DNA of 64,000 bases. It comes from a virus. This document shows, piece by piece, positions 1,899-51,337 of this stretch (position 1 is its first letter; each line of letters begins with the position of its first letter). A model generated the notes under the pieces. It saw nothing but the letters and a program-made list of their open reading frames with translations, ran no database searches and was not told the DNA's origin. The translations under genes were made by a program, and so were the position numbers. The stretch spans positions 143,261 through 207,260 of the IMG/VR virus record IMGVR_UViG_3300046692_000091. One strand, written 5' to 3'.

Positions 1899-3056
1899 AT
1901 GTCTCTCTGTACTTGGTTTGTTGAACTACTTTACGGCAAAAAAGAAGTAGGTACCATCGCTGGTGCCGAAGAAGTAAAGCCAGAAGCGGAAATGTTCTGC
2001 CGTAGTAATCGGCGGGATACGTGGACTAAGCGTATCTATTCGGATATGATTGCCACTGGTGCCGATCTGGTATGTATCTCCACCCCAGGTAATCTTCATC
2101 GTTATCGTGGTGTTCTGTTTAACCATAAGTTGAAAGTGTGGGATGTCGTCACACTGGCTGAAGTTGAACTTGGTACATTGTGGTCGAATGGTGGTGCTCG
2201 CGGATGCTATAAGTCATCTCGTGAGATCGATGATCATCGTTCCCGTTATGAACCTCACAAGAAGATGATGAAAGAGTACGAAATCGTAGGGGGCTTTATT
2301 AACGAAGTAACCTATTGTAAAGGCATGTATGGTAACCATCACACAGGATTCTCCAAGCACTATTACCTGTCTATCGGTATTAATGTGGACCATCTGAGAA
2401 TGGTAGAGGAATTCAATACAGATAAACGGTACCGTGTTGCTACGCTTCCTAATGGCACGCAACTCTTTCGTACTGTCCCACAGATGGTTCAACAAAACAT
2501 AGCTACTTCGGCTACCAGTTTATTCACCTATACTACCCAGACAGGTGAGTCAATCACCATACCGAACTGGGTTATGGGCACGATTAAACAGGTACAGCTC
2601 GTTGATGCCGATGGGAATGATACGGTATTGGCCGACCCTATCAAGATCACCAAGCTAGATGATGGTGAGGATGTAGGGAAAGAAGCATACATCTATTTGG
2701 TTGAAGGTACGGCTAATACATACACTCGTGCCCGCTATCGGATCGAAGTTGAGTCTGAACGTATCTTTGGTGGTAAGATCGTAGACGTGGATGCCCTGTT
2801 GGAATCCATTTTCCACCGTATGTGTTTCCAGCAAATCGATCACAAGGGCAAGTTGTTCATCGACCACATCCAATACCTGTGTTTGGATGGAACGACCCAT
2901 ACCGCTGATGTAGGTGGTTTCTTGTCCATCGGGGCAGAGGCTTATCGAGCAGGTAGAACACAGGCTGGTGTGCATCATGGGTCACATGGCCATACGTATT
3001 TACAGGGCCCATTGATCGTAACCCATGTGGCCTTCCCTGAGGAACCAATTTACTAG
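1899..3056 (+). CDS. hypothetical protein (385 aa)
   Basis: Long ORF; 'aaggaaccagaATG'; followed by promoter motif and hairpin. Confidence 0.6.
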   Translation: MSLCTWFVELLYGKKEVGTIAGAEEVKPEAEMFCRSNRRDTWTKRIYSDMIATGADLVCISTPGNLHRYRGVLFNHKLKVWDVVTLAEVELGTLWSNGGARGCYKSSREIDDHRSRYEPHKKMMKEYEIVGGFINEVTYCKGMYGNHHTGFSKHYYLSIGINVDHLRMVEEFNTDKRYRVATLPNGTQLFRTVPQMVQQNIATSATSLFTYTTQTGESITIPNWVMGTIKQVQLVDADGNDTVLADPIKITKLDDGEDVGKEAYIYLVEGTANTYTRARYRIEVESERIFGGKIVDVDALLESIFHRMCFQQIDHKGKLFIDHIQYLCLDGTTHTADVGGFLSIGAEAYRAGRTQAGVHHGSHGHTYLQGPLIVTHVAFPEEPIY

Positions 3057-3086
3057 ATTTAAAACATTTATAAGGCTATATTACTG
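3056..3086 (+). promoter_or_regulatory. phage promoter-like motif ...taaggCTATATTACtg
   Basis: One of 7 plus-strand copies of CTATATTAC in AT-rich context upstream of gene starts. Confidence 0.5.
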
Positions 3087-3108
3087 TAGTGATGTAGCTC
3101 CACCCATG

Positions 3109-3134
3109 GGCCTCCTTTCGGGGAGGCTTTATGT
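3109..3134 (+). terminator. hairpin (UUCG loop) + CTTTATG
   Basis: gcctcctttcggggaggctttatg. Confidence 0.55.
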
Positions 3135-3156
3135 CCTGTAATAGAGGTATCCCAAT

Positions 3157-3441
3157 ATGATTCATCCAGTACGCTGGGCGATATCATTAATGGCAACTGC
3201 TCATCTCTACTTAAATGGAGGCGATCCAAAAGTCGTTCGTGGTATTGTAAAGCACCTAAACGTTCTGTATAACACAGAACTAGTAATGTCGCATGATCTT
3301 GATAAAGAAGTATGTGTACTAGAAGCTCTAACAAAAAGAGTCAGTGGGGTTTTCGACCACTATGGTGATGATAACCAATTATCCCCGGATGTGCGCATGT
3401 CCTACATCGAAATGCAATTAATATCCGCAAGACGCCTCTAA
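3157..3441 (+). CDS. hypothetical protein (94 aa)
   Basis: ORF just after hairpin-CTTTATG element. Confidence 0.45.
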   Translation: MIHPVRWAISLMATAHLYLNGGDPKVVRGIVKHLNVLYNTELVMSHDLDKEVCVLEALTKRVSGVFDHYGDDNQLSPDVRMSYIEMQLISARRL

Positions 3442-3486
3442 GTTAAGGGGGGTCCTGCGAAAATCTATCTTCCAGGAGGAATCCCC

Positions 3487-3849
3487 ATGAAACCTATGTA
3501 TTTGACCCTTACCGACAACACGTTGACTTTTGAAGACCTGGTTAATGTAGGCCAGGATGCAGAAGCTCTCAAATTCACGTTGGTTGATCGTTTTACCCGT
3601 CAGCCAATAGATCGTCCTATGGTTGTTGCAGCGACTGATACGCGCCATGAAGGCGTTGTTGTATCGTCTGTAGTAATGCATAGCGATGGCGAATCTACCT
3701 TTCAAGCTTTGTTTGACTGGTGGAATAAATGTGAGATCCATGAGATCGCAATCGAATGGTATCACATCGATAGTGCCAAGGTTGATATCCGTGTGAAGGG
3801 TAATCCTAAACACGTTGTAAACTATGCTCTGAAAGTAGAAAAAGCATAG
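3487..3849 (+). CDS. hypothetical protein (120 aa)
   Basis: Strong SD 'ccaggaggaatccccATG'. Confidence 0.6.
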   Translation: MKPMYLTLTDNTLTFEDLVNVGQDAEALKFTLVDRFTRQPIDRPMVVAATDTRHEGVVVSSVVMHSDGESTFQALFDWWNKCEIHEIAIEWYHIDSAKVDIRVKGNPKHVVNYALKVEKA

Positions 3850-3942
3850 TCTATCCTTTGGATTGGACACCTCTGACCTTTACGGGTTGGGGGTGTCCAT
3901 CTATTGCTTTTCTTTTTTATACTCAGCACCCCTCTAGTATAG

Positions 3943-4377
3943 GTGAACGACCATACTAAAAGCAAAGGAGGGAGGCTTTTATTTTGTAACATGGTTACGT
4001 TAGTAACATCCTTATTCCCTACCAACAAGAGATCAGAAATGACCGCAAGTAATGTTGTAAAGATCCCGGTAATCTGCATGGGTGCAGAATCGAAATTCCT
4101 GACTAAGAAGACAGTTCAGCTCGAGAAGATCGTAAGCTGTCAATTGGTAGACGCATATGGCGTACAGATTAAGGATTATGTGGTAGCTAATGAAGCTCCT
4201 ATTCCTAATCTGTACCAACGGACCATCTATAAGAAAGGTCTGGCAACATCCGAAAAGATTGGGTCGCTATTTGTTGATCAAGTAACAGGGTCTTATACTC
4301 TGAAGCTGTTAGATCCATTGGCTCGACCAGCAGGTGTTGATATCCAACTTACCATCCAAACGAAGGAAGCCGCATGA
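3943..4377 (+). CDS. hypothetical protein; start uncertain (GTG 3943, ATG 3990 or ATG 4039); C-terminus ...KEAA
   Basis: ORF; stop overlaps next start (gccgcATGa). Confidence 0.45.
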   Translation: MNDHTKSKGGRLLFCNMVTLVTSLFPTNKRSEMTASNVVKIPVICMGAESKFLTKKTVQLEKIVSCQLVDAYGVQIKDYVVANEAPIPNLYQRTIYKKGLATSEKIGSLFVDQVTGSYTLKLLDPLARPAGVDIQLTIQTKEAA

Positions 4378-4811
4378 CTGAAGTGTCTATTCGCCGTATG
4401 CCTGTTGATGACAGTGCAGATAGCCGTCAAGCCATTATTCAGGTACCGATTCATAATACCGAATGCTACCAACTACCTGATCTGTTGGGCATTAACCCAA
4501 CAGCAATTCATTGGATCACTCCGGTCCAAGTCTCAGCACAATACTCAGGTATCCCAGCCCCAGGATTTACGTTTACCATTCGTCCTTACCGTGAGCAAGA
4601 AGGTGGTGGACAATGGGTAGATGTATTCTACCGGCTGAACAAGGTAGCCCTCATTTCGATCGGTGGACCACATGGCCGTATCGTCACGGGTAATGCACTC
4701 GATGAACAATTGGCTAAGTTGTTCCCTGAGATGGCAGAAGCAGTAGCACAAGTAACGGTGGCCTTCCTCGTGCAGTACGAGGTTCCTCATGAAGACACGT
4801 TTGCTACTTGA
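4374..4811 (+). CDS. hypothetical protein (145 aa)
   Basis: ORF; ATGA overlap with upstream gene. Confidence 0.55.
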   Translation: MTEVSIRRMPVDDSADSRQAIIQVPIHNTECYQLPDLLGINPTAIHWITPVQVSAQYSGIPAPGFTFTIRPYREQEGGGQWVDVFYRLNKVALISIGGPHGRIVTGNALDEQLAKLFPEMAEAVAQVTVAFLVQYEVPHEDTFAT

Positions 4812-5166
4812 TTATTCCAATCGCGGGGTAGTCTCAGGCAGATCTAATAGTTTGGTACATCACGGATCTCCTGATCTTCAGTTTACTGATGTGAATGTAC
4901 TGGCAGTTACGCAAGGGCCACAGACCTACGAATCTGAGTTAGGCTTCTATAAGGAGCCTCAACTTGAGTTCCCCAATCGGATAGTGTTTACTTTCTTCGA
5001 TAAGATTCAGAATCAATTGATTGCTGAGTTGGAAGTAGAACTCCAATTGAAGAGAATGCGTTGGATCAAGTCCGTGACTATGTCTCGGGTTACACCTTTC
5101 CAAGTTGAGATCGAACTGATTCAAGATCCAGCTATTCCCAGCCACTTATGGAGTATAGCGATTTGA
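4789..5166 (+). CDS. hypothetical protein (125 aa)
   Basis: ORF; overlaps neighbours by a few codons. Confidence 0.45.
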   Translation: MKTRLLLDYSNRGVVSGRSNSLVHHGSPDLQFTDVNVLAVTQGPQTYESELGFYKEPQLEFPNRIVFTFFDKIQNQLIAELEVELQLKRMRWIKSVTMSRVTPFQVEIELIQDPAIPSHLWSIAI

Positions 5167-5579
5167 TAGAATTGACGATAGCTTTATACGACAAACGGGA
5201 AGGTGATCTAGGAGATTGTGTTAGAGGCACCGAAGATAAAACTTTAGGGAAGCCATTTTGGATAACCCCAGGTCTAACATTCGAAACTGATGGGCAACCC
5301 ATCCATGCCTTTAAAACAGTTCCCACGCTACACTCTTACGTGGGTGTAAAGACTTTCCAGATCTGGGACAAGCGCAGTCAGTCCAAGCGAAAGCTTGTGG
5401 CAACGATTACGATAGACACCGCTACTAATAGCTACGTTGTGGCATTAGAAGACTACTATCAACGTCGTCGGTTGAATATGACTTTCCATGTACATGGGAA
5501 TTATGTTAGACCTCCTGCGCCTGTGGCATTCCATAACAAGACCCATCACGGTGATTGGGTTTTCGATAATACGATCTAA
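5148..5579 (+). CDS. hypothetical protein (143 aa)
   Basis: ORF in tandem array. Confidence 0.5.
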   Translation: MEYSDLIELTIALYDKREGDLGDCVRGTEDKTLGKPFWITPGLTFETDGQPIHAFKTVPTLHSYVGVKTFQIWDKRSQSKRKLVATITIDTATNSYVVALEDYYQRRRLNMTFHVHGNYVRPPAPVAFHNKTHHGDWVFDNTI

Positions 5580-5581
5580 TC

Positions 5582-5734
5582 ATGAAGACCAAACTCGAGA
5601 TGATCCACACTCTGCAACAACAGATGGAAACTCTCATTGAAGATAACCTGAAACTGGTTAAACAAATGGGTGCTCTAGTAAAGAATCAGACTGATCTAGA
5701 AAAGCGTCTTGCAAAGCTAGAGGAAAGGAAATAA
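5582..5734 (+). CDS. small coiled-coil protein (50 aa), not in ORF track
   Basis: ATG 5582 right after upstream stop; heptad-like MKTKLEMIHTLQQQMETLIEDNLKLVK...LEERK; fills the 150-nt gap exactly. Confidence 0.4.
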   Translation: MKTKLEMIHTLQQQMETLIEDNLKLVKQMGALVKNQTDLEKRLAKLEERK

Positions 5735-5736
5735 CC

Positions 5737-6201
5737 ATGCAACATCCGGTAGTAGCTAAACAAGTATTTTCGGATCTAGGTATCGTGCTCGATGGCCGTT
5801 CCTATTTCCCAGAAGATTCCCTCAATGCAACCTTGATCGAAAAGGTACTGCAGCGAGAAGCCCGTTGGTTGACCTATAACAAAGCTGGTGTGCTAGTTGG
5901 CTATAATGCCGAAGAGGATATCCAACTAGGTACTCGGGTTGCACTGAACCATAACGGTTCGGTAGATGACGCCGATATTTTCTGGTCACCTCTCTCTGGG
6001 GATAAAGATACCCCTTTGGTTCAGCTGTATGCTGAAGGCTTAGAAGAGACAACCAATCGCATGCAAGAAACCCGTGCGTACATGATGCAATGTATGGGTA
6101 GCCGTGGCTGGGTTCCTACCTTTGATGATGCTGGTGATCTGGTGGGGCTATGCCGTAACTTCATTATCGATGTAAGTCAAATCAATCGTCGTGCTGCTTA
6201 A
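5737..6201 (+). CDS. hypothetical protein (154 aa); ends ...RRAA
   Basis: SD 'gaggaaaggaaataaccATG'. Confidence 0.55.
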   Translation: MQHPVVAKQVFSDLGIVLDGRSYFPEDSLNATLIEKVLQREARWLTYNKAGVLVGYNAEEDIQLGTRVALNHNGSVDDADIFWSPLSGDKDTPLVQLYAEGLEETTNRMQETRAYMMQCMGSRGWVPTFDDAGDLVGLCRNFIIDVSQINRRAA

Positions 6202-6209
6202 GGATTTAA

Positions 6210-6656
6210 ATGAAAACGTTTTTGTATCTGTTACCGATCGAACATGATCAAGAAATCAAAGATCTACTGCGCATGGTTTCAAAGCCACCAACTGAGTGCT
6301 ACTCCGGACCTATGGTGATGGAGAGTAAGCTGATTGATCTGGTAGGTAAAGCCGAACGAGTAGAAACTGATCAAGGTCTGGATGCTCGTAACCTGGTCAT
6401 CCCCGAAGATAAGATTTGTGTTGGGATCATGGTCGAACATAGTGAGGGTGAAAATGTTCATCGGACCGAATGCGACATGTTTGCTGATCACCCAGAATTC
6501 GAACATCCGGTAGGTGGTCTTGCTAATCGAATGGACCGCGCTGCCGATGTATTGATCGATAGACTACACCGTCCAAACAAAACCACTTCGTATGCCTGGA
6601 CCTATAACGGCATGAGTGGTTACAAAGCTTTGCGGTTGTGTGGGCGTTACAGTTAA
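6210..6656 (+). CDS. hypothetical protein (148 aa)
   Basis: SD 'taaggatttaaATG'. Confidence 0.55.
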   Translation: MKTFLYLLPIEHDQEIKDLLRMVSKPPTECYSGPMVMESKLIDLVGKAERVETDQGLDARNLVIPEDKICVGIMVEHSEGENVHRTECDMFADHPEFEHPVGGLANRMDRAADVLIDRLHRPNKTTSYAWTYNGMSGYKALRLCGRYS

Positions 6657-6704
6657 TTCACTTCGGTGTATTAATATTCTGACCCATCAACTAGAGGCAA
6701 CGTG

Positions 6705-7073
6705 ATGCAATGTTTAACACACGTACTGAGGTCGTTGGTTCTCGTAACCGCATTAGCGGCTGCAACGAATACAATGGCAACAGAGGTGATTGCGGATGGA
6801 ACTTACTGTGAGAGTCTAGCTGAAATGGCTAAGGCAGGAGCAGAAGCTAAATCCCGTGGTGAGTCTAAGCAACAATGGCGCACTAATCTCCTCTCCCTAA
6901 AGGGATACGTTGTGAAGAATAAAGATAACGTTCTTTACAGCATTCTTCCTAAAGCGGTATCGGAAGTGGACGCAGTCTATAAGAATCGTGAGACTCCTAT
7001 GGACACATACCAAACTTCCTACGTCGGCTGCATGACGAATGATTACGGTTCCGCCGTAACCATCAACTATTGA
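6705..7073 (+). CDS. secreted protein with N-terminal signal peptide
   Basis: N-terminus MQCLTHVLRSLVLVTALAAATNTMA; SD 'agaggcaacgtgATG'. Confidence 0.5.
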   Translation: MQCLTHVLRSLVLVTALAAATNTMATEVIADGTYCESLAEMAKAGAEAKSRGESKQQWRTNLLSLKGYVVKNKDNVLYSILPKAVSEVDAVYKNRETPMDTYQTSYVGCMTNDYGSAVTINY

Positions 7074-7078
7074 TATTT

Positions 7079-7104
7079 GGCCTTCCTTCGGGGAGGCCTT
7101 ATGT
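7079..7104 (+). terminator. hairpin + CTTATG
   Basis: ggccttccttcggggaggccttatg. Confidence 0.55.
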
Positions 7105-7125
7105 CCCAATCAAAGAAAGGTAAAT

Positions 7126-7272
7126 ATGGAAACGTTAGGCTCTTCATTAATATTGTTAGGTATTCTCGCCTTCTTCTTCGGTTTCGGTGATATGTGCGGG
7201 ACTAATAAAAAGGTAGTTGTTGGTAGTGTTGCCGCAATCGTAGCGGGCGTGATTATCAATTTAATCAACTAG
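7126..7272 (+). CDS. small membrane protein (48 aa), not in ORF track
   Basis: METLGSSLILLGILAFFFGFGDMCGTNKKVVVGSVAAIVAGVIINLIN; two hydrophobic helices. Confidence 0.45.
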   Translation: METLGSSLILLGILAFFFGFGDMCGTNKKVVVGSVAAIVAGVIINLIN

Positions 7273-7280
7273 GGGGTTCT

Positions 7281-7457
7281 ATGTGGGCACTCTATCTCGT
7301 AGCATTTGTTATCTTCGCTATCGGCTTGGAGTTCTTCTTAGGGGAACGTCAATCCAAAGTAGACGATGATGACATTGGACGTACCAGTACTGGTGAAGAA
7401 CGTTTCGCAGGACTGGTATTAATGTTGGTAGGTGTAACAATTGCATTATGGGTGTAA
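7281..7457 (+). CDS. small membrane protein (58 aa), not in ORF track
   Basis: MWALYLVAFVIFAIGLEFFLGER...FAGLVLMLVGVTIALWV; SD 'tagggggttctATG'. Confidence 0.45.
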   Translation: MWALYLVAFVIFAIGLEFFLGERQSKVDDDDIGRTSTGEERFAGLVLMLVGVTIALWV

Positions 7458-7458
7458 C

Positions 7459-7656
7459 ATGGAAACATTAGTTGGAATTATAGCTGCAATCGCCATGGCC
7501 AGTGCAATTGCTTTACTGGTATTGGGGATCAACGCTCTATGTTGGTGGGAAGCCTTTCTTCCCAAAACAAAGCGAAAAGTATTTATCAGTGCCTGTGTGT
7601 TGGGCACGATTGTATTTTTCAGTGTGCTTTGGTTTATTTGGCTCATGCACAACTAA
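7459..7656 (+). CDS. small membrane protein (65 aa)
   Basis: METLVGIIAAIAMASAIALLVLG...; starts at taacATGg after previous gene. Confidence 0.5.
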   Translation: METLVGIIAAIAMASAIALLVLGINALCWWEAFLPKTKRKVFISACVLGTIVFFSVLWFIWLMHN

Positions 7657-7684
7657 CACAAAAAATCTGAAATCTATATTACTA
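7655..7684 (+). promoter_or_regulatory. promoter-like motif aaaaaatctgaaatCTATATTACtactgtg
   Basis: Nearly identical 30-mer at 27808; precedes sspB-like gene. Confidence 0.5.
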
Positions 7685-7717
7685 CTGTGAATTCATAAAG
7701 ACCATTAGGGGCTACAA

Positions 7718-8458
7718 ATGCAAATCGAACAACGCGATACCAACATGACCCGCACTATGATGGACGCTTTCTTCAGTTGGTTCGCGGCAAACGACATCAG
7801 CCGTATCCACGTTATTGTGGACGGCACCCTTTTTGACAGTAAGGCTTTCGTAGACGATATGAATGGTCTGTATCAGATCCGTTTGTCTATTGGCGCTGCT
7901 GCAGTTCGTGGTTTCGGTTATCATGAACATGGCTTCTCGTACGGTTGCATGCGTCAAGGTGTTCATATCGACATGGACATTCCTTACGAAGCAGTGTTGG
8001 GCTTTGTTATCCCAACTGGTGAGAACACCGAAGTCATCTTCGAGGTTCCTAACCTGGAACGTCACCAAATGAAACTCGAACAACAGAAAGGTTTGTTGCC
8101 ACAACTGGGTAACTTCGCTTTCGTTGATCATGAAGGTAAAGCACTGCCGGATGAAATGGTTCATGAGCTGATGCGTCAACTCGTTCCATCCAATGCGGCC
8201 AAAGCAATCGAAGCCGCTCCTTATGCCGTACATGGCATCGCCCCAGAGACCCAGGATGAGGAAGGCAATCAACTGCCAACCATCACTGACCTGATGACCC
8301 GTAAACCTCTGGCGCAGCGTCCTGCTAAGCCCCAGCCTAAAGAAGCTCAAGCACCATTGTTGAACTTCGGCAATGTAAGTGGTACACAACTTCCAGCCCC
8401 AAAACCAACCCGTGCCATCCCTGCAGGTTGGTCCGTAATCCAAGGAGGTAAAGCATGA
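7718..8458 (+). CDS. sspB: SspB-like ClpXP adaptor homolog (stringent starvation protein B family)
   Basis: N-terminal ~110 aa aligns to E. coli SspB: MMDAFFSWFAANDISRIHVIVDGT vs LLRAFYEWLLDNQLTPHLVVDVT; IRLSIGAAAV vs IVLNIAPRAV; ...IPYEAVLGFV vs ...VPLAAVLAIY. Long low-complexity C-terminal tail, as in SspB. Confidence 0.6.
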   Translation: MQIEQRDTNMTRTMMDAFFSWFAANDISRIHVIVDGTLFDSKAFVDDMNGLYQIRLSIGAAAVRGFGYHEHGFSYGCMRQGVHIDMDIPYEAVLGFVIPTGENTEVIFEVPNLERHQMKLEQQKGLLPQLGNFAFVDHEGKALPDEMVHELMRQLVPSNAAKAIEAAPYAVHGIAPETQDEEGNQLPTITDLMTRKPLAQRPAKPQPKEAQAPLLNFGNVSGTQLPAPKPTRAIPAGWSVIQGGKA

Positions 8459-9168
8459 ACCCGTGTGACCAACTGGCGCATATCACGTGCCGTCGTAAAT
8501 CCCCGCGCCTGGCTGAGATCTTCAAGAAGCTGGATGGGGATTCGCATTTCCAGCAATTGGATATGTATGAACTGAATGACATGTTGTTCCGTGAACTAGC
8601 ATGGATGCCAAGTATGGTATCGATGGATTCTGAAGAACTCTATCAGGTCAACATCCGCACTATCCCGATCGCTCGTTTCGAAGATGGTGGTCTCCGTGTA
8701 CTGTCAATGGATACCCAAACCTTCTGGCCCAGTATGAATGATGTACAATCGGAACATGCTGTTCTGCAAGACATGGTTCATGCAGCTATGGTTAAGCATG
8801 TAATGTCCTGGGGCCTACGAATCAAAGAACCAGAACTGCGTATGCCGGTGTACTTCTCATTCGATCAACTCCGTCAGAATCTGGACGCTGTTGTTGTAGG
8901 GGCTGGTTTGCACACACTGACTGACGAACTCCGTCGTGTGCCACGTAAAACCAATCACCTCACTATTAATGTGGTGTTGACGATTACACCATCATTGATG
9001 TACCAGATCCGTGACCAGTCTCGTGCACAGATCTACATCTGCGACAACAACTTGCAACCTATCAATAACTTTGAAGGTGTTGTTGATAATGGGAACGAAA
9101 GTTTCTTTGACTTCTTGCGGAAACATAGTTACGACAGTAGCGTAATGTTAATGCCAGGTCTGGAGTAA
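8455..9168 (+). CDS. hypothetical protein (237 aa)
   Basis: ATGA overlap with sspB-like gene. Confidence 0.55.
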   Translation: MNPCDQLAHITCRRKSPRLAEIFKKLDGDSHFQQLDMYELNDMLFRELAWMPSMVSMDSEELYQVNIRTIPIARFEDGGLRVLSMDTQTFWPSMNDVQSEHAVLQDMVHAAMVKHVMSWGLRIKEPELRMPVYFSFDQLRQNLDAVVVGAGLHTLTDELRRVPRKTNHLTINVVLTITPSLMYQIRDQSRAQIYICDNNLQPINNFEGVVDNGNESFFDFLRKHSYDSSVMLMPGLE

Positions 9169-9171
9169 CAA

Positions 9172-10554
9172 ATGCTTATTCAGGAAGTGTTAGGGTTATA
9201 CCACAATGCAATAGAGATGCTCAGTTCGGGTGACTCAACAGTCAAAGGTTTCATGACGTTGGGTGTCATGGGTCTGTTGGGTTATTTGGGGCGTACGATA
9301 CCCCAAACAATCTGGGCGTTCATCAAACGTAACACGATTTCATCGATGACTTTCACTCGCGCAGGTTCATATTCCATGGACATGCAGAACTACGTAGAGT
9401 TCATGCGTTGGTTCTCACAATCCAAGTGGGCTAAATATGATCGCAATCGACGTGTAACATTCGATCGGAATGACCCAGCTTTTGGACCAGGTACTGGCTT
9501 CCACTGGTTTGTTTGGAAAGGTCGTTACTTCTGGTTTAATGTTGTCCGTTTGAATTCCTCCGGTACCGATATCGAGAAAGAAGAATTCACACTGTATACA
9601 TTCGGTCGTACCACTAAACCATTCGAAGAACTGGTGGAAGAGTTCCGTATCAAGCCATGCAAGAAATCGATACGTATCTATGCCCCATCGAATGACGGTT
9701 GGAACTATCAGGGGCGACTACGGTTGGACGCTGATGAAACACTGATCATCGATCCAGAAGTAGAGAAAGAGTTCTTTGGTTCTATCGACTGGTATCTGGC
9801 AAACGAACCATGGTACCGTAAACGTGGATTGGCTTATAAACACACTGTCGTGTTGCATGGTCCACCTGGTACCGGTAAGACTTCGTTGATCAAACGTGCA
9901 GCCCGGAAGTACAAGCGGGATATTCACTTCCTGAACTTGGCTACCCATGGTCGTCAGTTGACTGATCTGATGGGTAAGTTGTCGGCTGGTGACATTCTGT
10001 GCATTGAAGACTTTGATGATGTCAAGTCGTTGCACCGTCGCACTGGTCCGAAGAAGATGGAAATCGGTGAACTGGACATCGGTTCCGATAAGAAACCAGA
10101 AGCGTTGTTGATGGACTGCGAGATTCAACTCAGTACCTTCCTCAACGTTCTGCAAGGCGTTGTAGAGCTCGATGATATCATTATCGTGCTGACTACTAAC
10201 CACCTGGAACTGATCGATCCAGCGGTCTACCGTCCGTCCCGTGTGAACAAACTGATCGAAGTGCTACCTCTGAAAGATCCGGAAGTTAAGCGCTATATCG
10301 ACACGATGTATGATAATCCTACTTACGATCGTAATGTAATGTACCCAGACGTTCCAGCTTCTACCCTGGCTGGTATCTTCATGGAGCACCCGAACGATCA
10401 CCTGGCTTTCATTGATAAGCTAGATTCGTTGGACGACAAATACGTCGCGGAGAACTATGCTCTACAACCAGAGCCCCCGCGCCCACCTTCCAAGAAAAAT
10501 AAGGACCCTTCTCCAATAGGAGGACAGGTTCTTGAAACCGTAGAGGCAGCGTAA
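9172..10554 (+). CDS. membrane-anchored AAA+ ATPase, Bcs1-like
   Basis: N-terminal TM helix GFMTLGVMGLLGYLG; Walker A HGPPGTGKTSLIK; Walker B ILCIEDFD; BCS1-like ...IHFLNL. Confidence 0.7.
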   Translation: MLIQEVLGLYHNAIEMLSSGDSTVKGFMTLGVMGLLGYLGRTIPQTIWAFIKRNTISSMTFTRAGSYSMDMQNYVEFMRWFSQSKWAKYDRNRRVTFDRNDPAFGPGTGFHWFVWKGRYFWFNVVRLNSSGTDIEKEEFTLYTFGRTTKPFEELVEEFRIKPCKKSIRIYAPSNDGWNYQGRLRLDADETLIIDPEVEKEFFGSIDWYLANEPWYRKRGLAYKHTVVLHGPPGTGKTSLIKRAARKYKRDIHFLNLATHGRQLTDLMGKLSAGDILCIEDFDDVKSLHRRTGPKKMEIGELDIGSDKKPEALLMDCEIQLSTFLNVLQGVVELDDIIIVLTTNHLELIDPAVYRPSRVNKLIEVLPLKDPEVKRYIDTMYDNPTYDRNVMYPDVPASTLAGIFMEHPNDHLAFIDKLDSLDDKYVAENYALQPEPPRPPSKKNKDPSPIGGQVLETVEAA

Positions 10555-10555
10555 C

Positions 10556-10897
10556 ATGGATAATTTTGCACGTCACAACTTCAACGTCTACCCGGAAGAG
10601 ATGACCTACCACAAAGATCGCTTCTTGCAAAATGATGCTGGTTGTGCGGTAGTTACATTCGTTGGGGCTTTTCATGGCGATACCATTCTGACGAATGAAG
10701 TCGAAGTGATTGCACGTGGTGTGGAACTGGGTAAGATCGCTCGGTTCCTGGTTCGTTCAGGTGATCAGGAAACCCATCTCGACATGGATCTGACAACCTG
10801 CCGTTATGAAGCAGAAAGCAATATCAAAACCAAACTGGGTGACGTCGTACTGGTGTTCACCGCGCACTACCCAACCGAAGAAAAGGAAGCTGCATGA
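10556..10897 (+). CDS. hypothetical protein (113 aa); ends KEAA
   Basis: ORF; stop overlaps next ATG. Confidence 0.5.
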   Translation: MDNFARHNFNVYPEEMTYHKDRFLQNDAGCAVVTFVGAFHGDTILTNEVEVIARGVELGKIARFLVRSGDQETHLDMDLTTCRYEAESNIKTKLGDVVLVFTAHYPTEEKEAA

Positions 10898-11832
10898 TTC
10901 GCGTTCGTTATGGTTACAGTCATAGTTCTTCGACGATGCCTGTTGAAATGAAACACATGCCGGGTGGTGAACTCCACCCAACGCTTGACACGGATCACTT
11001 GAATGCCAGCGAGTACACCATCTACGCCGACACCAAGAGCTCGGATGATCTGTTTGGTATTGCTCTGGTAGCTAACGCTATCCGCCGTAATGCCGAAGTA
11101 CCAATCAAAGCACTCTCTCTGGTAATTGGTTATGTGCCTTATGCACGCCAAGACCGTATTGTTGGTGGTGAAGGTGAGGCACTATCGATCGAAGTGATGG
11201 CCGACTTCATCAACATGCTGAACTTCGATGCAGTGATCATTGCAGATCCCCACAGCGATACAACTCCGGCTTTGATCCGTAATGCTAAGGTCATGTCCCA
11301 GGAAATGATCTTCAGTGAATTCCTGATCCGCGAAACGGCAGACTTCGATACCCGTGAGATTGCTTACGTGCCATCTGAGTACATCCTGGTTTCCCCAGAT
11401 GCTGGTGCGATCAAGAAGACCGAGAAGCTGGCTACTAAGTTCGGCTTTAAAGGTGTAGCGTACGCTAACAAAACACGCAATACCCGTACCGGTAAGATCA
11501 CTGGTTGTACTGTGGACCGATTGGTTTTGGATGGTGAACCAGCAATGATAAGTCAACTACAAGGCGAGAAGCTTTTAGTAGTTGACGATATCTGTGATGG
11601 TGGTTATACATTTATCCAATTGGCCGAAGTGTTGAATACCTACAGCCCAGCTAGTTTGGAACTGTACGTCACTCACGGTATCTTCTCTAAAGGTCTCGAG
11701 CCGTTGTATAAAGCGGGTTACACTCGTGTTGTTACTACCAATGCTTATGGCATGGAAGGTAGCACTGAGCTGTATGCGCTTGAGAAAGAAGAAAAGAAAG
11801 CACTCAAATTCGTAAAAATCGATATTGCCTAA
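10894..11832 (+). CDS. ribose-phosphate pyrophosphokinase family protein (Prs-like; alternatively ADPR pyrophosphokinase Adps of the NARP1 pathway)
   Basis: Prs signatures GYVPYARQDR and PRPP-binding loop LLVVDDICDGGYT; 312 aa. Confidence 0.7.
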   Translation: MIRVRYGYSHSSSTMPVEMKHMPGGELHPTLDTDHLNASEYTIYADTKSSDDLFGIALVANAIRRNAEVPIKALSLVIGYVPYARQDRIVGGEGEALSIEVMADFINMLNFDAVIIADPHSDTTPALIRNAKVMSQEMIFSEFLIRETADFDTREIAYVPSEYILVSPDAGAIKKTEKLATKFGFKGVAYANKTRNTRTGKITGCTVDRLVLDGEPAMISQLQGEKLLVVDDICDGGYTFIQLAEVLNTYSPASLELYVTHGIFSKGLEPLYKAGYTRVVTTNAYGMEGSTELYALEKEEKKALKFVKIDIA

Positions 11833-11841
11833 GGATTCAAA

Positions 11842-13656: not shown

Positions 13657-13662
13657 TCGGAC

Positions 13663-13700
13663 GGGGACCTTCGGGTCCCCATCCTATTTTCTTTTTTGTC
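13663..13700 (+). terminator. hairpin + T-rich tract
   Basis: ggggaccttcgggtcccc + atcctattttcttttttg. Confidence 0.6.
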
Positions 13701-13710
13701 GGAGTAAACA

Positions 13711-14325
13711 ATGATCTGCTGTCAAAATTGTAATGTTGATGCTGTTAGTCCTCAGCGTTCAGAAGTAAATGCATCCATCCGCTTTGATGCAACTGATGCC
13801 CCTAATCCAGCATTGATCGGCAAGAATCTCCGCTTGGTTAATGGTACGTTGTTCACTCGTGATGGCGCAATGCCTAAAGGCGGCTTTCGTGTTGAGATGA
13901 TTACTACTGGTGCAAAGCATCGTATCTCGATCTACCGCATGACCTTACCTTTCGATGAGTTGATGCTGATCCTACAATTCGATGAAACGGTTGGTGAAGT
14001 ACAAGTCAGACAGTTCGCAAATGTCGAACCACTGGTACAACTCCATCTGGAGATGACCAAAGAATTCGTGGAAGAAAAACTCTACCAAGAACTAGCACCA
14101 TTGGTATACCGTGTACCTTCACGTGCAGCTATGCTCCAACTCTTCGAGCATCGTAAATTGTCAGGCCGTGTTCTGGAGGCAGCCGAAGTACAAATCCAAA
14201 CCAATAACCGGACAGGTAACTGGCCGATGATGGCAATATTCCATCAGAATCTCCTCGGTGTTGAGACGCGAAATTCTCCTGTTATTAATATTCCTGATTG
14301 GAGAAATAACGCAGCTTGGCAATAA
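13711..14325 (+). CDS. hypothetical protein (204 aa)
   Basis: SD 'ggagtaaacaATG' after terminator. Confidence 0.55.
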   Translation: MICCQNCNVDAVSPQRSEVNASIRFDATDAPNPALIGKNLRLVNGTLFTRDGAMPKGGFRVEMITTGAKHRISIYRMTLPFDELMLILQFDETVGEVQVRQFANVEPLVQLHLEMTKEFVEEKLYQELAPLVYRVPSRAAMLQLFEHRKLSGRVLEAAEVQIQTNNRTGNWPMMAIFHQNLLGVETRNSPVINIPDWRNNAAWQ

Positions 14326-14349
14326 TGTGTAATTAACCGGAGAGCTTTA

Positions 14350-15774: not shown

Positions 15775-15782
15775 CAACATAA

Positions 15783-15808
15783 GGCCTCCCATTGGGGAGG
15801 CTTTTATA
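15783..15808 (+). terminator. hairpin + TTTTATAT
   Basis: ggcctcccattggggaggcttttatat. Confidence 0.55.
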
Positions 15809-21680: not shown

Positions 21681-21720
21681 GGCTACCCTTCGGGGTAGCC
21701 TCTATTCCCTTTTCTTTTTT
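21681..21720 (+). terminator. hairpin + T-rich tract
   Basis: ggctacccttcggggtagcc + tctattcccttttcttttttg; same hairpin recurs at 52077. Confidence 0.6.
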
Positions 21721-21747
21721 GAAACTTTTTAAAGGCCTATATTACTT
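21717..21747 (+). promoter_or_regulatory. promoter-like motif actttttaaaggcCTATATTAC
   Basis: Follows terminator and T-run. Confidence 0.5.
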
Positions 21748-21776
21748 TCTTGTAATTACCCACAAGAAGGAAGCTA

Positions 21777-27763: not shown

Positions 27764-27800
27764 GCGCCGCCCTTCGGGGCGGCTTTGCCTGTTCTTTTTT
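27764..27800 (+). terminator. hairpin + T-rich tract
   Basis: gcgccgcccttcggggcggc + tttgcctgttcttttttg. Confidence 0.6.
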
Positions 27801-27807
27801 GTCTGTT

Positions 27808-27837
27808 TACTCGAAAAAATCTGAAATCTATATTACT
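27808..27837 (+). promoter_or_regulatory. promoter-like motif aaaaaatctgaaatCTATATTACtacagtg
   Basis: Near-identical to 7655 copy; follows terminator. Confidence 0.5.
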
Positions 27838-27947
27838 ACAGTGTATTCAAGACAAAAGAATTAATGTCTAACCGCAGCTAGTGGGGTGGGTTATGTAAAC
27901 GTTAGCAGGAAACTAATACCGTTAGGCATCTAATATAGGAGCATGCA

Positions 27948-34969: not shown

Positions 34970-35002
34970 GCCTATCCTTCGGGATAGGCTTTATGTTGTT
35001 TT
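34970..35002 (+). terminator. hairpin + CTTTATG; exact 33-nt repeat of 48805-48837
   Basis: gcctatccttcgggataggctttatgttgttt. Confidence 0.55.
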
Positions 35003-35007
35003 CTTTT

Positions 35008-35037
35008 ATTCAAACTTTTTAAACGCCTATATTACAT
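35008..35037 (+). promoter_or_regulatory. promoter-like motif actttttaaacgcCTATATTAC
   Basis: Same layout as 21717 copy. Confidence 0.5.
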
Positions 35038-35069
35038 TCTTGGATTCACTAACTATAGGAAAAGGCCCG

Positions 35070-39979: not shown

Positions 39980-39982
39980 ACG

Positions 39983-40009
39983 GGGTCCCTTCGGGGACTC
40001 CTTTATGTT
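39983..40009 (+). terminator. hairpin + CTTTATG
   Basis: ggggtcccttcggggactcctttatg. Confidence 0.55.
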
Positions 40010-40036
40010 GCAAAAAATTATAACCCTATATTACCA
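40008..40036 (+). promoter_or_regulatory. promoter-like motif aaaattataacCCTATATTAC
   Basis: Follows terminator at 39983. Confidence 0.5.
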
Positions 40037-40098
40037 TTTGGTGTAGGGAAATCGTATCCATGACCAATCCTGGTGTTTGACTAGTAAGGCAACAAAGA

Positions 40099-40383
40099 AT
40101 GCTAAGCTCGCTCTTCAATCTGACCATCCGTAGTCTCGCAGCATCCAAAGTAGAACCAGGTATGGTATTAACCGCAGCACGAGATATATTCGTGACCATT
40201 CTCGATAGACGTGGGGCACACCACGATATCTTGTTTGCGAACGAAGGGGATCAGGTCCGAGTTGAAGGATCTGATAGTCACCGTCCTGGTGATTTGTTCG
40301 TATGCTCCAACGTCGACAACTTTGATGAAGTCGGCTCAGTAAATCCACATGACCTCGAAGACGCCTTTAATGAGTACAAATAA
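40099..40383 (+). CDS. hypothetical protein (94 aa)
   Basis: Downstream of promoter motif; SD 'taaggcaacaaagaATG'. Confidence 0.45.
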   Translation: MLSSLFNLTIRSLAASKVEPGMVLTAARDIFVTILDRRGAHHDILFANEGDQVRVEGSDSHRPGDLFVCSNVDNFDEVGSVNPHDLEDAFNEYK

Positions 40384-46467: not shown

Positions 46468-46741
46468 TAAGGCTACTACTTCTTTCTTCGGCGCTTGCTT
46501 TGTCATTGGCTTAGCAGCGTTGAGTGTGGTACTCTGGAACAAATACAATCCACCTCAGTTAGACCCAGGTTATCTGGCGTTCCAAGCTGATACGGATAAT
46601 CGTCTGGCCATTCGTAAGAAGCGTTTGGCCTATGAAGCTGCATGTATCCACGACGAGCGTCTGTTGGATATTCAATTTGGGAAAGTAGTCTATGACTGTG
46701 GTAAGATCTCAAAGCAGGTCTACCCAATGCCAGATGTTTAA
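46460..46741 (+). CDS. membrane-anchored protein (93 aa)
   Basis: TM FFGACFVIGLAALSVVLW. Confidence 0.45.
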   Translation: MNDKATTSFFGACFVIGLAALSVVLWNKYNPPQLDPGYLAFQADTDNRLAIRKKRLAYEAACIHDERLLDIQFGKVVYDCGKISKQVYPMPDV

Positions 46742-46792
46742 AACCATCTGAAGACTACATTACAATAGTGATAAGAACCTAAGGAGTTGTAA

Positions 46793-47470
46793 ATGGACCA
46801 AGTTAAGAGTAACTTTGAAATCGCACGTGGTATCGTTCGTCGCTACATGGCAAACTTCACTGATTCAACTACTCCACCAAAACTGGTGAAAGGTGGTTTC
46901 TTTGCTATGATCGCCTCGGATACTGGGGAGGTCTGGCTTGGGGAAGCTCAGTCCTTCGCAGCAACTATCACGCGTTTCAGAGCTACTACTGGAAAGCAGA
47001 TTGCTGATTGCATGGCGCAAGCTAAGCTGCGTGGGGCTAAGTTAGAACTGTGGCTGTTGACACAACCAACTCGCTTCTCTGCACAGGAGTTGGAAAATGA
47101 GCTGTATGAGTGTGACCTGTTGGCTGGACGGAAACGTCCTAACCGTGAAGGCGCAGGTGAGTTGCTGGTGGTTCGCCATCGTCGCTCGCTGAACTACTTC
47201 GTGGTATCCAATCGTCAGGAATCGACGCACGAGTCTGTGCTATCGCGTTTCCTGTACCGGTTGAATCAAACTGGTGGTGATGTGCACAACAAACGGTTGT
47301 CTGATTTCATTACCGAGAACGTTGAGGATGTATTGAATCAACGCGGTTTTGATATTACGTTTGTTGCACACTTTGTGGACAATGAAGATCTTTGGTTGAA
47401 GCGGCAGGTTTATATCGACGAGTGTCAATCAGGCGAATGCTTGAACCACCGTAATGTTGACCTGGTTTAA
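46793..47470 (+). CDS. hypothetical protein (225 aa)
   Basis: SD 'aaggagttgtaaATG'. Confidence 0.55.
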   Translation: MDQVKSNFEIARGIVRRYMANFTDSTTPPKLVKGGFFAMIASDTGEVWLGEAQSFAATITRFRATTGKQIADCMAQAKLRGAKLELWLLTQPTRFSAQELENELYECDLLAGRKRPNREGAGELLVVRHRRSLNYFVVSNRQESTHESVLSRFLYRLNQTGGDVHNKRLSDFITENVEDVLNQRGFDITFVAHFVDNEDLWLKRQVYIDECQSGECLNHRNVDLV

Positions 47471-48197: not shown

Positions 48198-48631
48198 TGT
48201 CTCATCTGGTGCTGGTTGAAATCGCACCTGTAGAAACGTCTCTAGGCTTCTCCCGTTTATCAGGGGAGCCATTGACGTGCCTAGAGTCCTACGCAGACAA
48301 GATCACTGATCTATTTACAATTCGTCAATACGGGTATCACCCTGAATACGGTGCAACACTCTTTGAGATCATCATCGACTGGGGCGACTCTTATATCAAT
48401 CCTGGTCCCCTACCTGGGTACCTCGGTGAGATACTAGAACCATTGCCGCTCAGGGCAGCTCTTGCTAAACTGCAAAGACAGTATGAGGTAATCTTAGAAG
48501 CGAACTGTCAGGTCGTGCGCCACGAGGGCCGGATAACTAGGTGTTCGTTCAAACCGAAAGGTGAATATCTAGATGCCCCGACCAATTTAGACTGGACGCT
48601 CGAAGATCCTCCCAAGCGAGAACTCATTTGA
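48197..48631 (+). CDS. hypothetical protein (144 aa)
   Basis: ATGA-type overlap. Confidence 0.5.
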   Translation: MSHLVLVEIAPVETSLGFSRLSGEPLTCLESYADKITDLFTIRQYGYHPEYGATLFEIIIDWGDSYINPGPLPGYLGEILEPLPLRAALAKLQRQYEVILEANCQVVRHEGRITRCSFKPKGEYLDAPTNLDWTLEDPPKRELI

Positions 48632-48804
48632 CCGAGAATAGTGTACAACTATATATGTGGTGATACTGCATGTGTTGTTTCCTTTCTCTTGATCGCTCTT
48701 TAACAACTTGTGTGTAACGACTAGCGGGGTTAGATTCCCTTGCACCTCCTCAGGCGTCTTTCATCGACTGATGCCGTGTCTTGGATTGCCAAGCGCAATA
48801 AATT

Positions 48805-48837
48805 GCCTATCCTTCGGGATAGGCTTTATGTTGTTTA
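48805..48837 (+). terminator. hairpin + CTTTATG; repeat of 34970
   Basis: Identical 33-mer. Confidence 0.55.
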
Positions 48838-48866
48838 AGACTAACTGACTTAATTGGGGCCACATT

Positions 48867-49322
48867 ATGTATTACAACTTCAGTCACAAAGAACTACCGT
48901 TCCAACTGAATACACTGCTGCGCTTTCTCTGCAAGGCTACAGTAATGCGTCGTCAGTTTGATGAAGACGAACACGTTTCGTTCACACCTCAAACTTCCGT
49001 AACAATGGTTGTGCCGTCACCTGGTAGCTGTGACATCGAACCGTATATCATCGCTACTTGTCCAGTAACTGGTTGCAGTCTGCGTTTGACTGTTAAGCTG
49101 GTACCTGAGCGCTCACTGGGGACACGTAATGATGCTGTGGCATACTTACGTCGCACTCTGTGCCGTGAAGCTATCATGGTGTCTGAGCGCGATATCCACA
49201 ATGTCGAGAAGTATGGTGAGCGTAAGCATTACACCAAGAACTTCTTCAAAGAGCTGATCGCGAAATATCAGTATCGCATTGATACCTTCGCATCCTACAA
49301 CTTCCATGCACGTTACGATTAA
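48867..49322 (+). CDS. hypothetical protein (151 aa)
   Basis: First gene after a 235-nt noncoding stretch and terminator. Confidence 0.5.
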   Translation: MYYNFSHKELPFQLNTLLRFLCKATVMRRQFDEDEHVSFTPQTSVTMVVPSPGSCDIEPYIIATCPVTGCSLRLTVKLVPERSLGTRNDAVAYLRRTLCREAIMVSERDIHNVEKYGERKHYTKNFFKELIAKYQYRIDTFASYNFHARYD

Positions 49323-49582: not shown

Positions 49583-49881
49583 TGGAAATCCCAACAAGGC
49601 AAGATCGCATTCAAAGCCTGTATGGTGAGGCTATCGAGACGTACTCGGTAGTCTTAAACAAAGCTATCCTGGAGGACAGTGAGGAAACGGATGGTAAGGG
49701 TTGTTCTTATATCACTACCCGCTTGAATGCTGACGGAGATTATGTGGACTCACGTGTTATCAAATATCTCGATGAGCATTATCGTAAAGCTGGTTGGATC
49801 ATTGAGCAGCATTCCGATGCAGATAGTGATAAGCAACACATCCGTATCTATTTTCTGCAGCAATCCGTTAAGGGTGATTAG
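49570..49881 (+). CDS. hypothetical protein (103 aa)
   Basis: ORF. Confidence 0.45.
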   Translation: METLMEIPTRQDRIQSLYGEAIETYSVVLNKAILEDSEETDGKGCSYITTRLNADGDYVDSRVIKYLDEHYRKAGWIIEQHSDADSDKQHIRIYFLQQSVKGD

Positions 49882-49992
49882 TACTCTGTATGCAATAGTA
49901 TATAGACGAACTGGAATTCCGTAGAACATCTCCCAACTTATCACCTACCCGTCGGTGTGTTGGTGCTACGTGAATTCCACCTATTTAATACT

Positions 49993-50016
49993 GTCCACCT
50001 GCGGGTGGGCTTTATG
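49993..50016 (+). terminator. hairpin + CTTTATG
   Basis: ccacctgcgggtgggctttatgcc. Confidence 0.5.
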
Positions 50017-50032
50017 CCGCTTTAGGGAACAT

Positions 50033-50209
50033 ATGACTTTCTTGAAATATTTGGCTCTATTTGGAGTCGTCCTGCTTTTTCAGGGTGGTATGGAATTACG
50101 CTATGGTTTACACCATGCTGCGTTTGATACCTGGCAATACTGGGTTGGTTCTAGTCTTCTCTGGTTAGTTGTTACGATTGTATTCGATTGGGTGGAGTCA
50201 AAGAAATGA
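50033..50209 (+). CDS. small membrane protein (58 aa)
   Basis: MTFLKYLALFGVVLLFQGG...; after hairpin. Confidence 0.35.
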   Translation: MTFLKYLALFGVVLLFQGGMELRYGLHHAAFDTWQYWVGSSLLWLVVTIVFDWVESKK

Positions 50210-50901
50210 CTTACATTGTTTACGATGGTAAAGCGCTCATCTCTGATCGATTAATGCAACAAACCGTAGGGCAGGATGCAATAGGTCGTCAGCCTGTCCA
50301 TAAATCCGGCTACGTCAATTTGTCCCGCCTAGGTAAAGGGGTGGACATTTTCTTTGATGATTGTTCCAAGATGATCTTCCCGGAGAAGGGCACGTATAAG
50401 GGTCAACGTATCCTGGTATTTGCCGCCTCTGGTTCAGTCAACAATCTAGGTGAACTGGCGAATGCTTTAGCTGCAGGTGTAGACTTCGATGCTTATTTAG
50501 GGGTTGAAGTAAACATATCTAAGGAGAGTCGTCGTATTTTCAATGGACGTACATCAGTACTGTTGATTACCGAAGATGGTACGGGACATGCTTTTACTGC
50601 GGGTGATAATGGCGTCATTGATGTCACTACAGAATTACCTCTACATCTTGGTGCGGGCATTGACCCAGTCGGCGGTGTCTATCAGATGGTCGTAGGGCCT
50701 ATGACAGCGCTGGAATGTTACGTGGTGGCTTCAAACCATAGTGATCTGGTGAGTCGTAACTTCGACTACTATATCCCTGCCACGCAGACGTACGTGAAAG
50801 ATCAACGGTTAACACCTCGTCAAGCTACACAGATTCTGGAGAAGGTTCAGAAACGAATTAACCTGCTTGCCACGGTGAAGTCTAAACCTTACGTCAATTA
50901 A
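50206..50901 (+). CDS. hypothetical protein (231 aa)
   Basis: ATGA overlap. Confidence 0.55.
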   Translation: MTYIVYDGKALISDRLMQQTVGQDAIGRQPVHKSGYVNLSRLGKGVDIFFDDCSKMIFPEKGTYKGQRILVFAASGSVNNLGELANALAAGVDFDAYLGVEVNISKESRRIFNGRTSVLLITEDGTGHAFTAGDNGVIDVTTELPLHLGAGIDPVGGVYQMVVGPMTALECYVVASNHSDLVSRNFDYYIPATQTYVKDQRLTPRQATQILEKVQKRINLLATVKSKPYVN

Positions 50902-51041
50902 CAAGGAAGTAACATGCTTAACCCAGTACAAGATAGGATAAAGCGTCGTCAGAATGCAATGCGGCTTGACACCGTCCAACGCTACACAATGAAAGCATTC
51001 ATTACTATCGTGGTGATAATAGGACTAGTGGAACTGATGAC

Positions 51042-51314
51042 ATGAATACGGCAATACCTGGTTGGACAACAATAGGTTTATTCCTAGCTTGGTTCATAAG
51101 TCACAGCTTGGTGATCTGGATAGCCTACAGACGAAACATGGCGATCGACATCAAGAATTGGCAAGGTCCCGATCTAGCGGAATTCGAGAAGAAGATGTTC
51201 TTTGCTCAGACTGATCACATCTTGGAGATCTGGTGGTTCAAAGCACTGCGCGCTGTATTCATTTACGGTAGCATCGCATTCTTCTTTATCTGGCTACACT
51301 TCGCTTCACTATAA
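51042..51314 (+). CDS. membrane protein (90 aa)
   Basis: Two TM helices. Confidence 0.45.
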   Translation: MNTAIPGWTTIGLFLAWFISHSLVIWIAYRRNMAIDIKNWQGPDLAEFEKKMFFAQTDHILEIWWFKALRAVFIYGSIAFFFIWLHFASL

Positions 51315-51337
51315 ACAATCTCAGATCTATATTACTC
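51312..51337 (+). promoter_or_regulatory. promoter-like motif caatctcagatCTATATTAC
   Basis: Upstream of 51376 gene. Confidence 0.45.

Follow-up and report, generated by a model that had tools for sequence, protein, structure and literature searches.

Background

The nucleus-forming giant phages (Chimalliviridae) possess a promoter class of their own, from which their first genes are transcribed without the host RNA polymerase. Work on phiKZ, 201phi2-1 and AR9 attributes the reading of this class to a multisubunit virion RNA polymerase injected with the DNA; reviews likewise assign it to the virion RNA polymerase entering with the DNA, and stress that every jumbo phage encoding these polymerases has such a motif that bioinformatics can detect (PMC7598289; PMC13282480). 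Here we analysed a recurrent motif, CTATATTAC, in a stretch of viral DNA of 64,000 nucleotides (nt), i.e. positions 143,261 to 207,260 of the IMG/VR record IMGVR_UViG_3300046692_000091. This whole stretch is called the window below and is numbered from its first letter. Eight sites in it are very probably phiKZ-type early promoters, i.e. new instances of a well-known class.

The phiKZ early promoter is given as TATATTAC (PMC7058600 Table 2), in agreement with a first, sequence-only reading of the window, which had pointed to early promoters of the TATATTAC type in phiKZ-like giant phages. Primer extension and RNA sequencing (RNA-seq) had defined 28 early promoters in phiKZ, and differential RNA-seq placed the motif at 32 start sites, with primary start sites for PHIKZ054 and PHIKZ260; early genes are unidirectional and the typical 5' untranslated region (UTR) measures 31-40 nt (PMC8244752). 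For 201phi2-1, the predicted promoter is TTAWTAVAA_HYWTTTRARR_BTATATTACDWHDGTG (PMC7058600 Table 2). In its transcriptome, start sites follow the motif at a distance of about 10 bp and conserved positions occur around -10, -20 and -30, just six early promoters being captured experimentally (PMC11512511). Conserved A/T-rich -20/-30 elements are described for both phages (PMC11512511). More distant jumbo phages that encode RNA polymerases (OBP and N1M2 with ...KATATTAT..., EL with CCTACATTAT, and AR9) have in common an AT-rich element of about 10 nt centred near -10, which likewise precedes early operons and is attributed to the virion polymerase (PMC7058600; PMC7598289).

Results and discussion

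Origin of the window

Judged by its sequence, the window comes from a jumbo phage that is undescribed and related to Psa21. Conserved genes show about 76 % nucleotide identity to the Pseudomonas jumbo phages Psa21, D6 and RVTF4, and the window is collinear with Psa21 at about 229.6-293.6 kb. In Psa21, seven genes are annotated as 'RNA polymerase beta subunit', and a nuclear shell protein and the tubulin PhuZ are annotated as well; Psa21 is accordingly a nucleus-forming phage of the phiKZ kind that encodes multisubunit polymerases. Genes lie on the + strand up to about 52 kb and are followed by a - strand block.

Eight motif sites on one strand

Seven exact copies of CTATATTAC were found in the window, all on the + strand, with cores starting at 3076, 7674, 21737, 27828, 35027, 40026 and 51327; 0.41 copies are expected by chance and none of 100 shuffles contained seven. 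When both strands were scanned, the 8-mer TATATTAC was confined to these seven sites. The sequence-only reading had reported seven + strand copies, and its count, strand and six of its positions hold, the remaining position (27827) being off by one. A matrix built from the seven window sites retrieved an eighth site at 46755 (23.2 bits), whose core CTACATTAC is a one-base variant and which retains every invariant flank position. To avoid circularity, an independent matrix was trained on 29 Psa21 sites alone and applied to the window with a threshold of 6 bits: it gave exactly eight matches, scoring 25-42 bits, and none on the - strand, the shuffle maximum being 13.6 bits.

The conserved pattern extends beyond the AT-rich core. 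Counted back from the core, all eight sites have A at positions 4, 13 and 14 and T at position 8, and all have a G at 7 nt past the core; positions 8-14 nt 5' of the core are conserved as A/T-rich. Since the published core is centred near -10, this G is the likely start site. With initiation there, the core would span -15 to -7 and be centred about 10-11 nt upstream of the start, and the A/T positions conserved before it (AAA..T.T...A) would fall in the -20/-30 regions, with T..T/A near -20 and AAA near -28. The same A/T pattern of the -20/-30 region, found in the window sites, is also present in Psa21 and phiKZ sites.

The candidate early promoters are as follows (bits, score with the Psa21-trained matrix; ORF, open reading frame; subtypes A and B refer to the flanks described below).

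3054..3091 (+): early promoter 1, subtype B; core CTATATTAC at 3076-3084; predicted start G 3091; first gene ORF 3157-3441; 37.4 bits; orthologous Psa21 site 233355 with exact core.
7652..7689 (+): early promoter 2, subtype A; core 7674-7682; predicted start 7689; first gene ORF 7718-8458; 37.5 bits; orthologous position with exact core in Psa21 and variant CTATATAAC in D6.
21715..21752 (+): early promoter 3, subtype B; core 21737-21745; predicted start 21752; first gene ATG 21780; 36.2 bits; orthologous D6 site TATATTAT; Psa21 promoter one gene further upstream, at 250999.
27806..27843 (+): early promoter 4, subtype A; core 27828-27836; predicted start 27843; first gene ORF 27948-28421; 42.5 bits; exact core at the orthologous gene in both Psa21 and D6.
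35005..35042 (+): early promoter 5, subtype B; core 35027-35035; predicted start 35042; first gene ATG 35070, end 35453; 34.4 bits; exact Psa21 core at the collinear position 265031.
40004..40041 (+): early promoter 6, intermediate flanks aaaaaattataacc; core 40026-40034; predicted start 40041; first gene ORF 40099-40383; 25.4 bits; orthologous site CTATATCAC in Psa21 and CTACATTAC in D6.
46733..46770 (+): early promoter 7, absent from the sequence-only reading; core CTACATTAC at 46755-46763; predicted start 46770; first gene ORF 46793-47470; 26.8 bits; orthologous gene with exact TATATTAC in D6 and CTATATCAT in Psa21.
51305..51342 (+): early promoter 8, subtype A; core 51327-51335; predicted start 51342; first gene ATG 51376, end 51546; 35.4 bits; orthologous position with exact core in Psa21 and CTATATCAC in D6.

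Placement relative to genes

All eight cores fall within the 7.1 % of positions 1-52100 that are uncovered by + strand ORFs of at least 50 codons, for which the probability by chance is about 0.071^8. The sites are therefore non-coding, on one strand and co-oriented with their genes, as phiKZ-type early promoters are. From core end to start codon, the distances are, in order, 72, 35, 34, 111, 34, 64, 29 and 40 nt, so that a spacing of 20-60 nt upstream of a gene start, as earlier proposed, applies to five sites (29-40 nt) and not to the other three (64, 72 and 111 nt). The predicted 5' UTRs measure 23-34 nt at the same five sites, while the three others have lengths of 58, 66 and 105 nt. The longest of them (27843-27947, after the promoter at 27828) is unusually long and matches no Rfam family.

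The eight promoters would thus head eight early transcription units on the + strand, consisting mostly of small genes. The scan with the Psa21-trained matrix bore out that no copy lies between 7.7 and 21.7 kb. Among 7-mers enriched in non-coding segments, the early promoter and a terminator family alone stand out, and no other recurrent intergenic motif that could denote another promoter class was found among them; this agrees with a review according to which middle and late promoters are unpredictable from sequence (PMC7598289).

Conservation in Psa21, D6 and phiKZ

The complete Psa21 genome carries 31 copies of TATATTAC, all on the + strand. The extended motif is present in 29 of them, 27 of which are intergenic by RefSeq annotation; the two others lie in starts of coding sequences that look over-extended. 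With the matrix trained on Psa21, all 34 sites in that genome were on the + strand. As to the two annotations, the starts of gp334 (256941-257549) and gp354 (265043-265438) in Psa21 (NC_062581) are placed upstream of, or just past the core of, an early promoter, and by homology with the window protein gp334 would start at about 257073.

For six window sites, a homologue of the downstream gene was found in Psa21/D6, and Psa21 and/or D6 carry the motif there, either unchanged or altered at one or two bases (CTATATCAC, CTACATTAC, TATATTAT, CTATATAAC, CTATATCAT), the rest of the intergenic DNA having diverged. Such retention of a motif amid diverged intergenic DNA is the footprint expected of a functional element. 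The motif of site 3076 is kept (exact) in Psa21 only, and support for site 35027 comes from the collinear Psa21 position only (265031).

With the Psa21-trained matrix and a threshold of 12 bits, the whole phiKZ genome gave 32 matches, every one of them on the + strand. The number equals that of the published early promoters, and a match lies just upstream of both PHIKZ054 and PHIKZ260, whose start sites are mapped; the agreement concerns this total and these two genes. The sequence-only reading had proposed a whole-genome search for an upstream-of-gene bias; run on Psa21 and phiKZ, it revealed an extreme one. Read directly in the phiKZ genome, the sequence upstream of PHIKZ068 is aaaaaatttgagatCTATATTACtaacatg and that upstream of PHIKZ246.1 is tttaaactatttaaaaagCTATATTACaaatatg, the latter directly after an CCCTTCGGGG terminator.

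Compared with phiKZ, the window sites share the core TATATTAC, the A/T-rich upstream elements, a conserved (T)G about 7 nt past the core, the restriction to one strand, the intergenic placement and both flank subtypes. The base before TATATTAC is variable in phiKZ (C, G, T or A) but always C in the window; subtype B reads ...TTTAAACAG-TATATTAC in phiKZ and ...TTTAAAGGC-CTATATTAC in the window; G+C content is 36.8 % in phiKZ versus about 46 % here; and the phiKZ sites are backed by transcripts, whereas those of the window are predicted from sequence. The closest published consensus is that of 201phi2-1, which, although from another genus (Serwervirus), is essentially the extended consensus of the window: both have the layout TTTRARR-B-TATATTAC-DWHD-GTG, in which GTG occupies positions 5-7 past the core, both are conserved around -10, -20 and -30, and in both a terminator can come directly behind the start site. 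Cores of the distant jumbo phages differ (ATATTAT or TACATTAT), and the orthologous-site variants CTACATTAC and TATATTAT point that way.

Consensus queries of 40 nt for both subtypes found matches in phiKZ relatives, 201phi2-1, Phabio and PA1C-like jumbo phages, as well as in Erwinia, Ralstonia, Aeromonas, Vibrio and Salmonella jumbo phages. The closest relatives had several matches per genome. Most of the matches listed fell between genes, in DNA bearing no annotation, and with the subtype B query unrelated phages were matched as well, though more weakly. In a pattern scan of IMG/VR, 23 of the 80 matches listed were on contigs larger than 200 kb. The published consensuses, the phiKZ matrix matches and the polymerase genes of Psa21 all support the earlier proposal of a phage-specific promoter class used by a phage RNA polymerase.

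Two flank subtypes

Two flanking subtypes had been proposed, and both are real: aaaaaatctgaaatCTATATTACtac is identical at 7674 and 27828, and actttttaaa(g/c)gcCTATATTAC is common to 21737 and 35027. Subtype A corresponds to AAAAAATCTSAGAT-CTATATTAC-TA, with AAAAAA.TYT.AGAT before the core, and subtype B to TTTAAAnnATTTAAAAGS-CTATATTAC-AA, with TTTAAA..ATTTAAA.. before the core. Clustering of the flanks of 74 sites (window, Psa21 and phiKZ) gave two groups, each containing sites of all three genomes, phiKZ contributing 18 of subtype A and 14 of subtype B, and flank positions were interdependent (silhouette of 0.232, versus a maximum of 0.161 in 200 column shuffles). Where the gene behind a promoter of Psa21 or the window had a homologue behind a phiKZ promoter, the subtype agreed in 10 of 11 pairs, these pairs not all being independent; examples are the promoters of the gp68 cluster, of the non-virion polymerase beta gene and of the shell-protein gene.

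At two orthologous positions, Psa21 (NC_062581; 40045 and 58198) and phiKZ (NC_004629; 44921 and 63062) share a variant core, CTATATCAT, flanked as in subtype A; one position is upstream of a non-virion RNA polymerase beta gene and the other upstream of the gene preceding that of the nuclear shell protein. This suggests a conserved variant that is weaker or differently timed.

The subtypes might be two functional subclasses of virion-polymerase promoters kept across genera and differing, for example, in strength, timing or an accessory recognition factor, an idea that we put forward tentatively and consider rather doubtful. Common descent could give the same subtype pattern, and the upstream subtype is linked to the base after the core in Psa21 (p=1e-4) but not in phiKZ (p=0.41), both of which speak against two subclasses. 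No description of such promoter subclasses was found in the literature searched.

Terminator hairpins around the promoters

The hairpins associated with the promoters are the following.

3109..3128 (+): terminator-type hairpin GGCCTCCTTTCGGGGAGGCT, then TTTAT; 3' of promoter 1, within the predicted 66-nt 5' UTR.
21681..21700 (+): intrinsic-terminator-like hairpin GGCTACCCTTCGGGGTAGCC; just 5' of promoter 3.
27766..27783 (+): terminator hairpin GCCGCCCTTCGGGGCGGC with a T-rich tail; 45 nt 5' of promoter 4.
34970..34989 (+): terminator hairpin GCCTATCCTTCGGGATAGGC with a TTTATG tail; 38 nt 5' of promoter 5; identical 29-nt copy at 48805.
39982..40001 (+): terminator hairpin GGGGTCCCTTCGGGGACTCC with a TTTATG tail; 25 nt 5' of promoter 6.

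A strong terminator with a CCYTTCGGRG loop thus precedes four sites (21737, 27828, 35027 and 40026) by 25-45 nt, and a weaker hairpin lies 67 nt before site 7674. The claim that the motif usually comes just after a terminator hairpin is correct for these four sites and, in weaker form, for 7674; it does not apply to 46755 and 51327, upstream of which no hairpin was found, nor to 3076, where the hairpin is downstream. Several early units would accordingly be delimited by CCYTTCGGRG-loop terminators just upstream. Terminators without an early promoter after them lie only 14-43 nt from the next start codon, and in the promoter-free stretches either terminator read-through or weakly conserved middle or late promoters are possible, both being described for phiKZ and 201phi2-1 (PMC7598289; PMC11512511).

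At promoter 3076, the hairpin at 3109-3128 starts 18 nt past the predicted start, in the 5' UTR of ORF 3157-3441 (window 3085-3160). Psa21 has the same promoter-then-hairpin layout at 233364-233434, with compensatory changes in the stem (GCCTCTCttcgGAGAGGC). The hairpin could attenuate the unit or yield a short transcript of about 40 nt; similar start-then-stop units of 201phi2-1 were described as 5' UTR-derived small RNAs (PMC11512511). The whole 5' UTR after this promoter folds no better than shuffles, the hairpin itself being clear.

The terminator family comprises at least eight + strand hairpins with CCYTTCGGRG loops. One 29-nt member, GCCTATCCTTCGGGATAGGCTTTATGTTG, is present in two identical copies (34970-34998 and 48805-48833), and further positions of the family are 3114, 21686, 27770, 32476, 35463, 39987, 44548 and 52083. 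An ORF-free stretch of 236 nt (48631-48867), located before the terminator at 48805, matches no Rfam family. The TTTATG tail of several hairpins contains TATG, the tetranucleotide defining phiKZ late promoters, which may be a coincidence.

Alternative explanations

Recognition by the host polymerase has to be considered, with TATATT as the -10 element of sigma-70 promoters and the upstream A/T-rich tract as an UP-like element. TATATT matches TATAAT at five of six positions, so that an AT-rich, hexamer-like core would stand about 10 nt before the start site; the upstream flanks are A/T-rich, and one site (7653-7680) scored 9/12 in a sigma-70 scan. The window sites nevertheless have no -35 partner and other invariant positions: at 16-18 nt before the -10 hexamer no conserved -35 element was found, the best TTGACA match being 2-4/6 (background mean of 2.45) with no common hexamer, as the sequence-only reading had stated. 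Bases not required by a -10 hexamer are invariant as well, namely the flanking C, the G at +7 and the AC that follows TATATT. Sigma-70-like sites are moreover depleted (18 versus 33.5 +/- 6.6 in shuffles, window 1-20000), which fits a genome not relying on, or avoiding, the host polymerase. Finally, the same motif marks the early promoters of phiKZ, whose infection is unaffected by rifampicin (PMC8244752; PMC13282480), and the phage polymerase has no sigma homologue (PMC13282480). We consider sigma-70 promoters very improbable. A hairpin promoter of the N4 virion RNA polymerase type was also examined and rejected, single-strand folding of -30..+21 giving 0 to -3.7 kcal/mol, no better than shuffles.

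Another reading is that the motif serves the non-virion phage polymerase, as a middle or late promoter, or both phage polymerases, rather than specifically the virion enzyme. PHIKZ054 has an early and a middle promoter (PMC8244752), some promoter assignments in 201phi2-1 were unexpected (PMC11512511), and direct biochemistry for the virion enzyme was not found in the literature searched. The published middle and late motifs differ, however, consisting of a weak element (AT-rich or TACT) at about -22 to -24 and of TATG at the start (PMC7598289; PMC8244752), and the purified non-virion polymerase of phiKZ initiates at TATG late promoters (PMC7598289). Reviews call the middle and late classes bioinformatically unfindable, whereas this motif is strongly conserved, and the genes downstream of it are small and mostly hypothetical, like phiKZ early genes; such a role is therefore highly unlikely. 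Least probable is a function other than promoter, either the binding site of a regulator, replication or packaging protein, or the footprint of a mobile terminator-plus-motif cassette. The near-identical 26-nt copies at 7674 and 27828 and the identical 29-nt terminator at 34970 and 48805, which together suggest a cassette spread by recombination, could be read in this way. Such a spread is compatible with a promoter role, though, and the strict orientation on one strand with the downstream genes, the promoter-like spacing to start codons, the lack of inverted-repeat or hairpin character and the start sites mapped about 10 nt past the same motif in phiKZ and 201phi2-1 (PMC8244752; PMC11512511) all argue for promoters.

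The phiKZ-type early promoter is thus the reading we prefer, and some points weigh against it. Three sites have long gaps to the first ORF, and since TATATT resembles a sigma-70 -10 element, some use of the host polymerase is possible by sequence. For the window phage, the predicted start sites, the early timing of transcription and its presumed dependence on a virion polymerase are all assigned by homology. The genes for RNA polymerase, shell protein and PhuZ are all absent from the 64-kb window, so that a virion polymerase in this phage is deduced from synteny with Psa21. In phiKZ itself, the assignment to the virion polymerase rests on timing, rifampicin insensitivity and virion content (PMC7598289), and no reconstituted in vitro transcription with the phiKZ virion enzyme was found in the literature searched.

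Other features of the window

A cluster of auxiliary-metabolism and RNA-repair genes is located at 9172-18735 and 52116-63814, and the Rfam scan of the window returned tRNAs only. The features are as follows.

9172-10554: AAA/BCS1-like ATPase.
10894-11832: phosphoribosyltransferase-domain protein, matching the Psa21 ribose-phosphate pyrophosphokinase.
11842-13656: nicotinamide phosphoribosyltransferase.
14350-15774: thymidylate synthase, long (474 amino acids).
17224-18735: RNA ligase.
54866-56167 (-): RtcB.
Same block as RtcB (-): seven tRNAs (Thr, Ser, Leu, Leu, Trp, Asn, Asn).

Conclusions

In this uncultured giant phage of the Psa21 type, the motif probably maps eight early transcription units, and it would place the fragment among the nucleus-forming phages whose transcription is independent of the host polymerase. 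The promoter class being already well known, this adds little for the field; the one point of wider interest is the conserved pair of flank subtypes.

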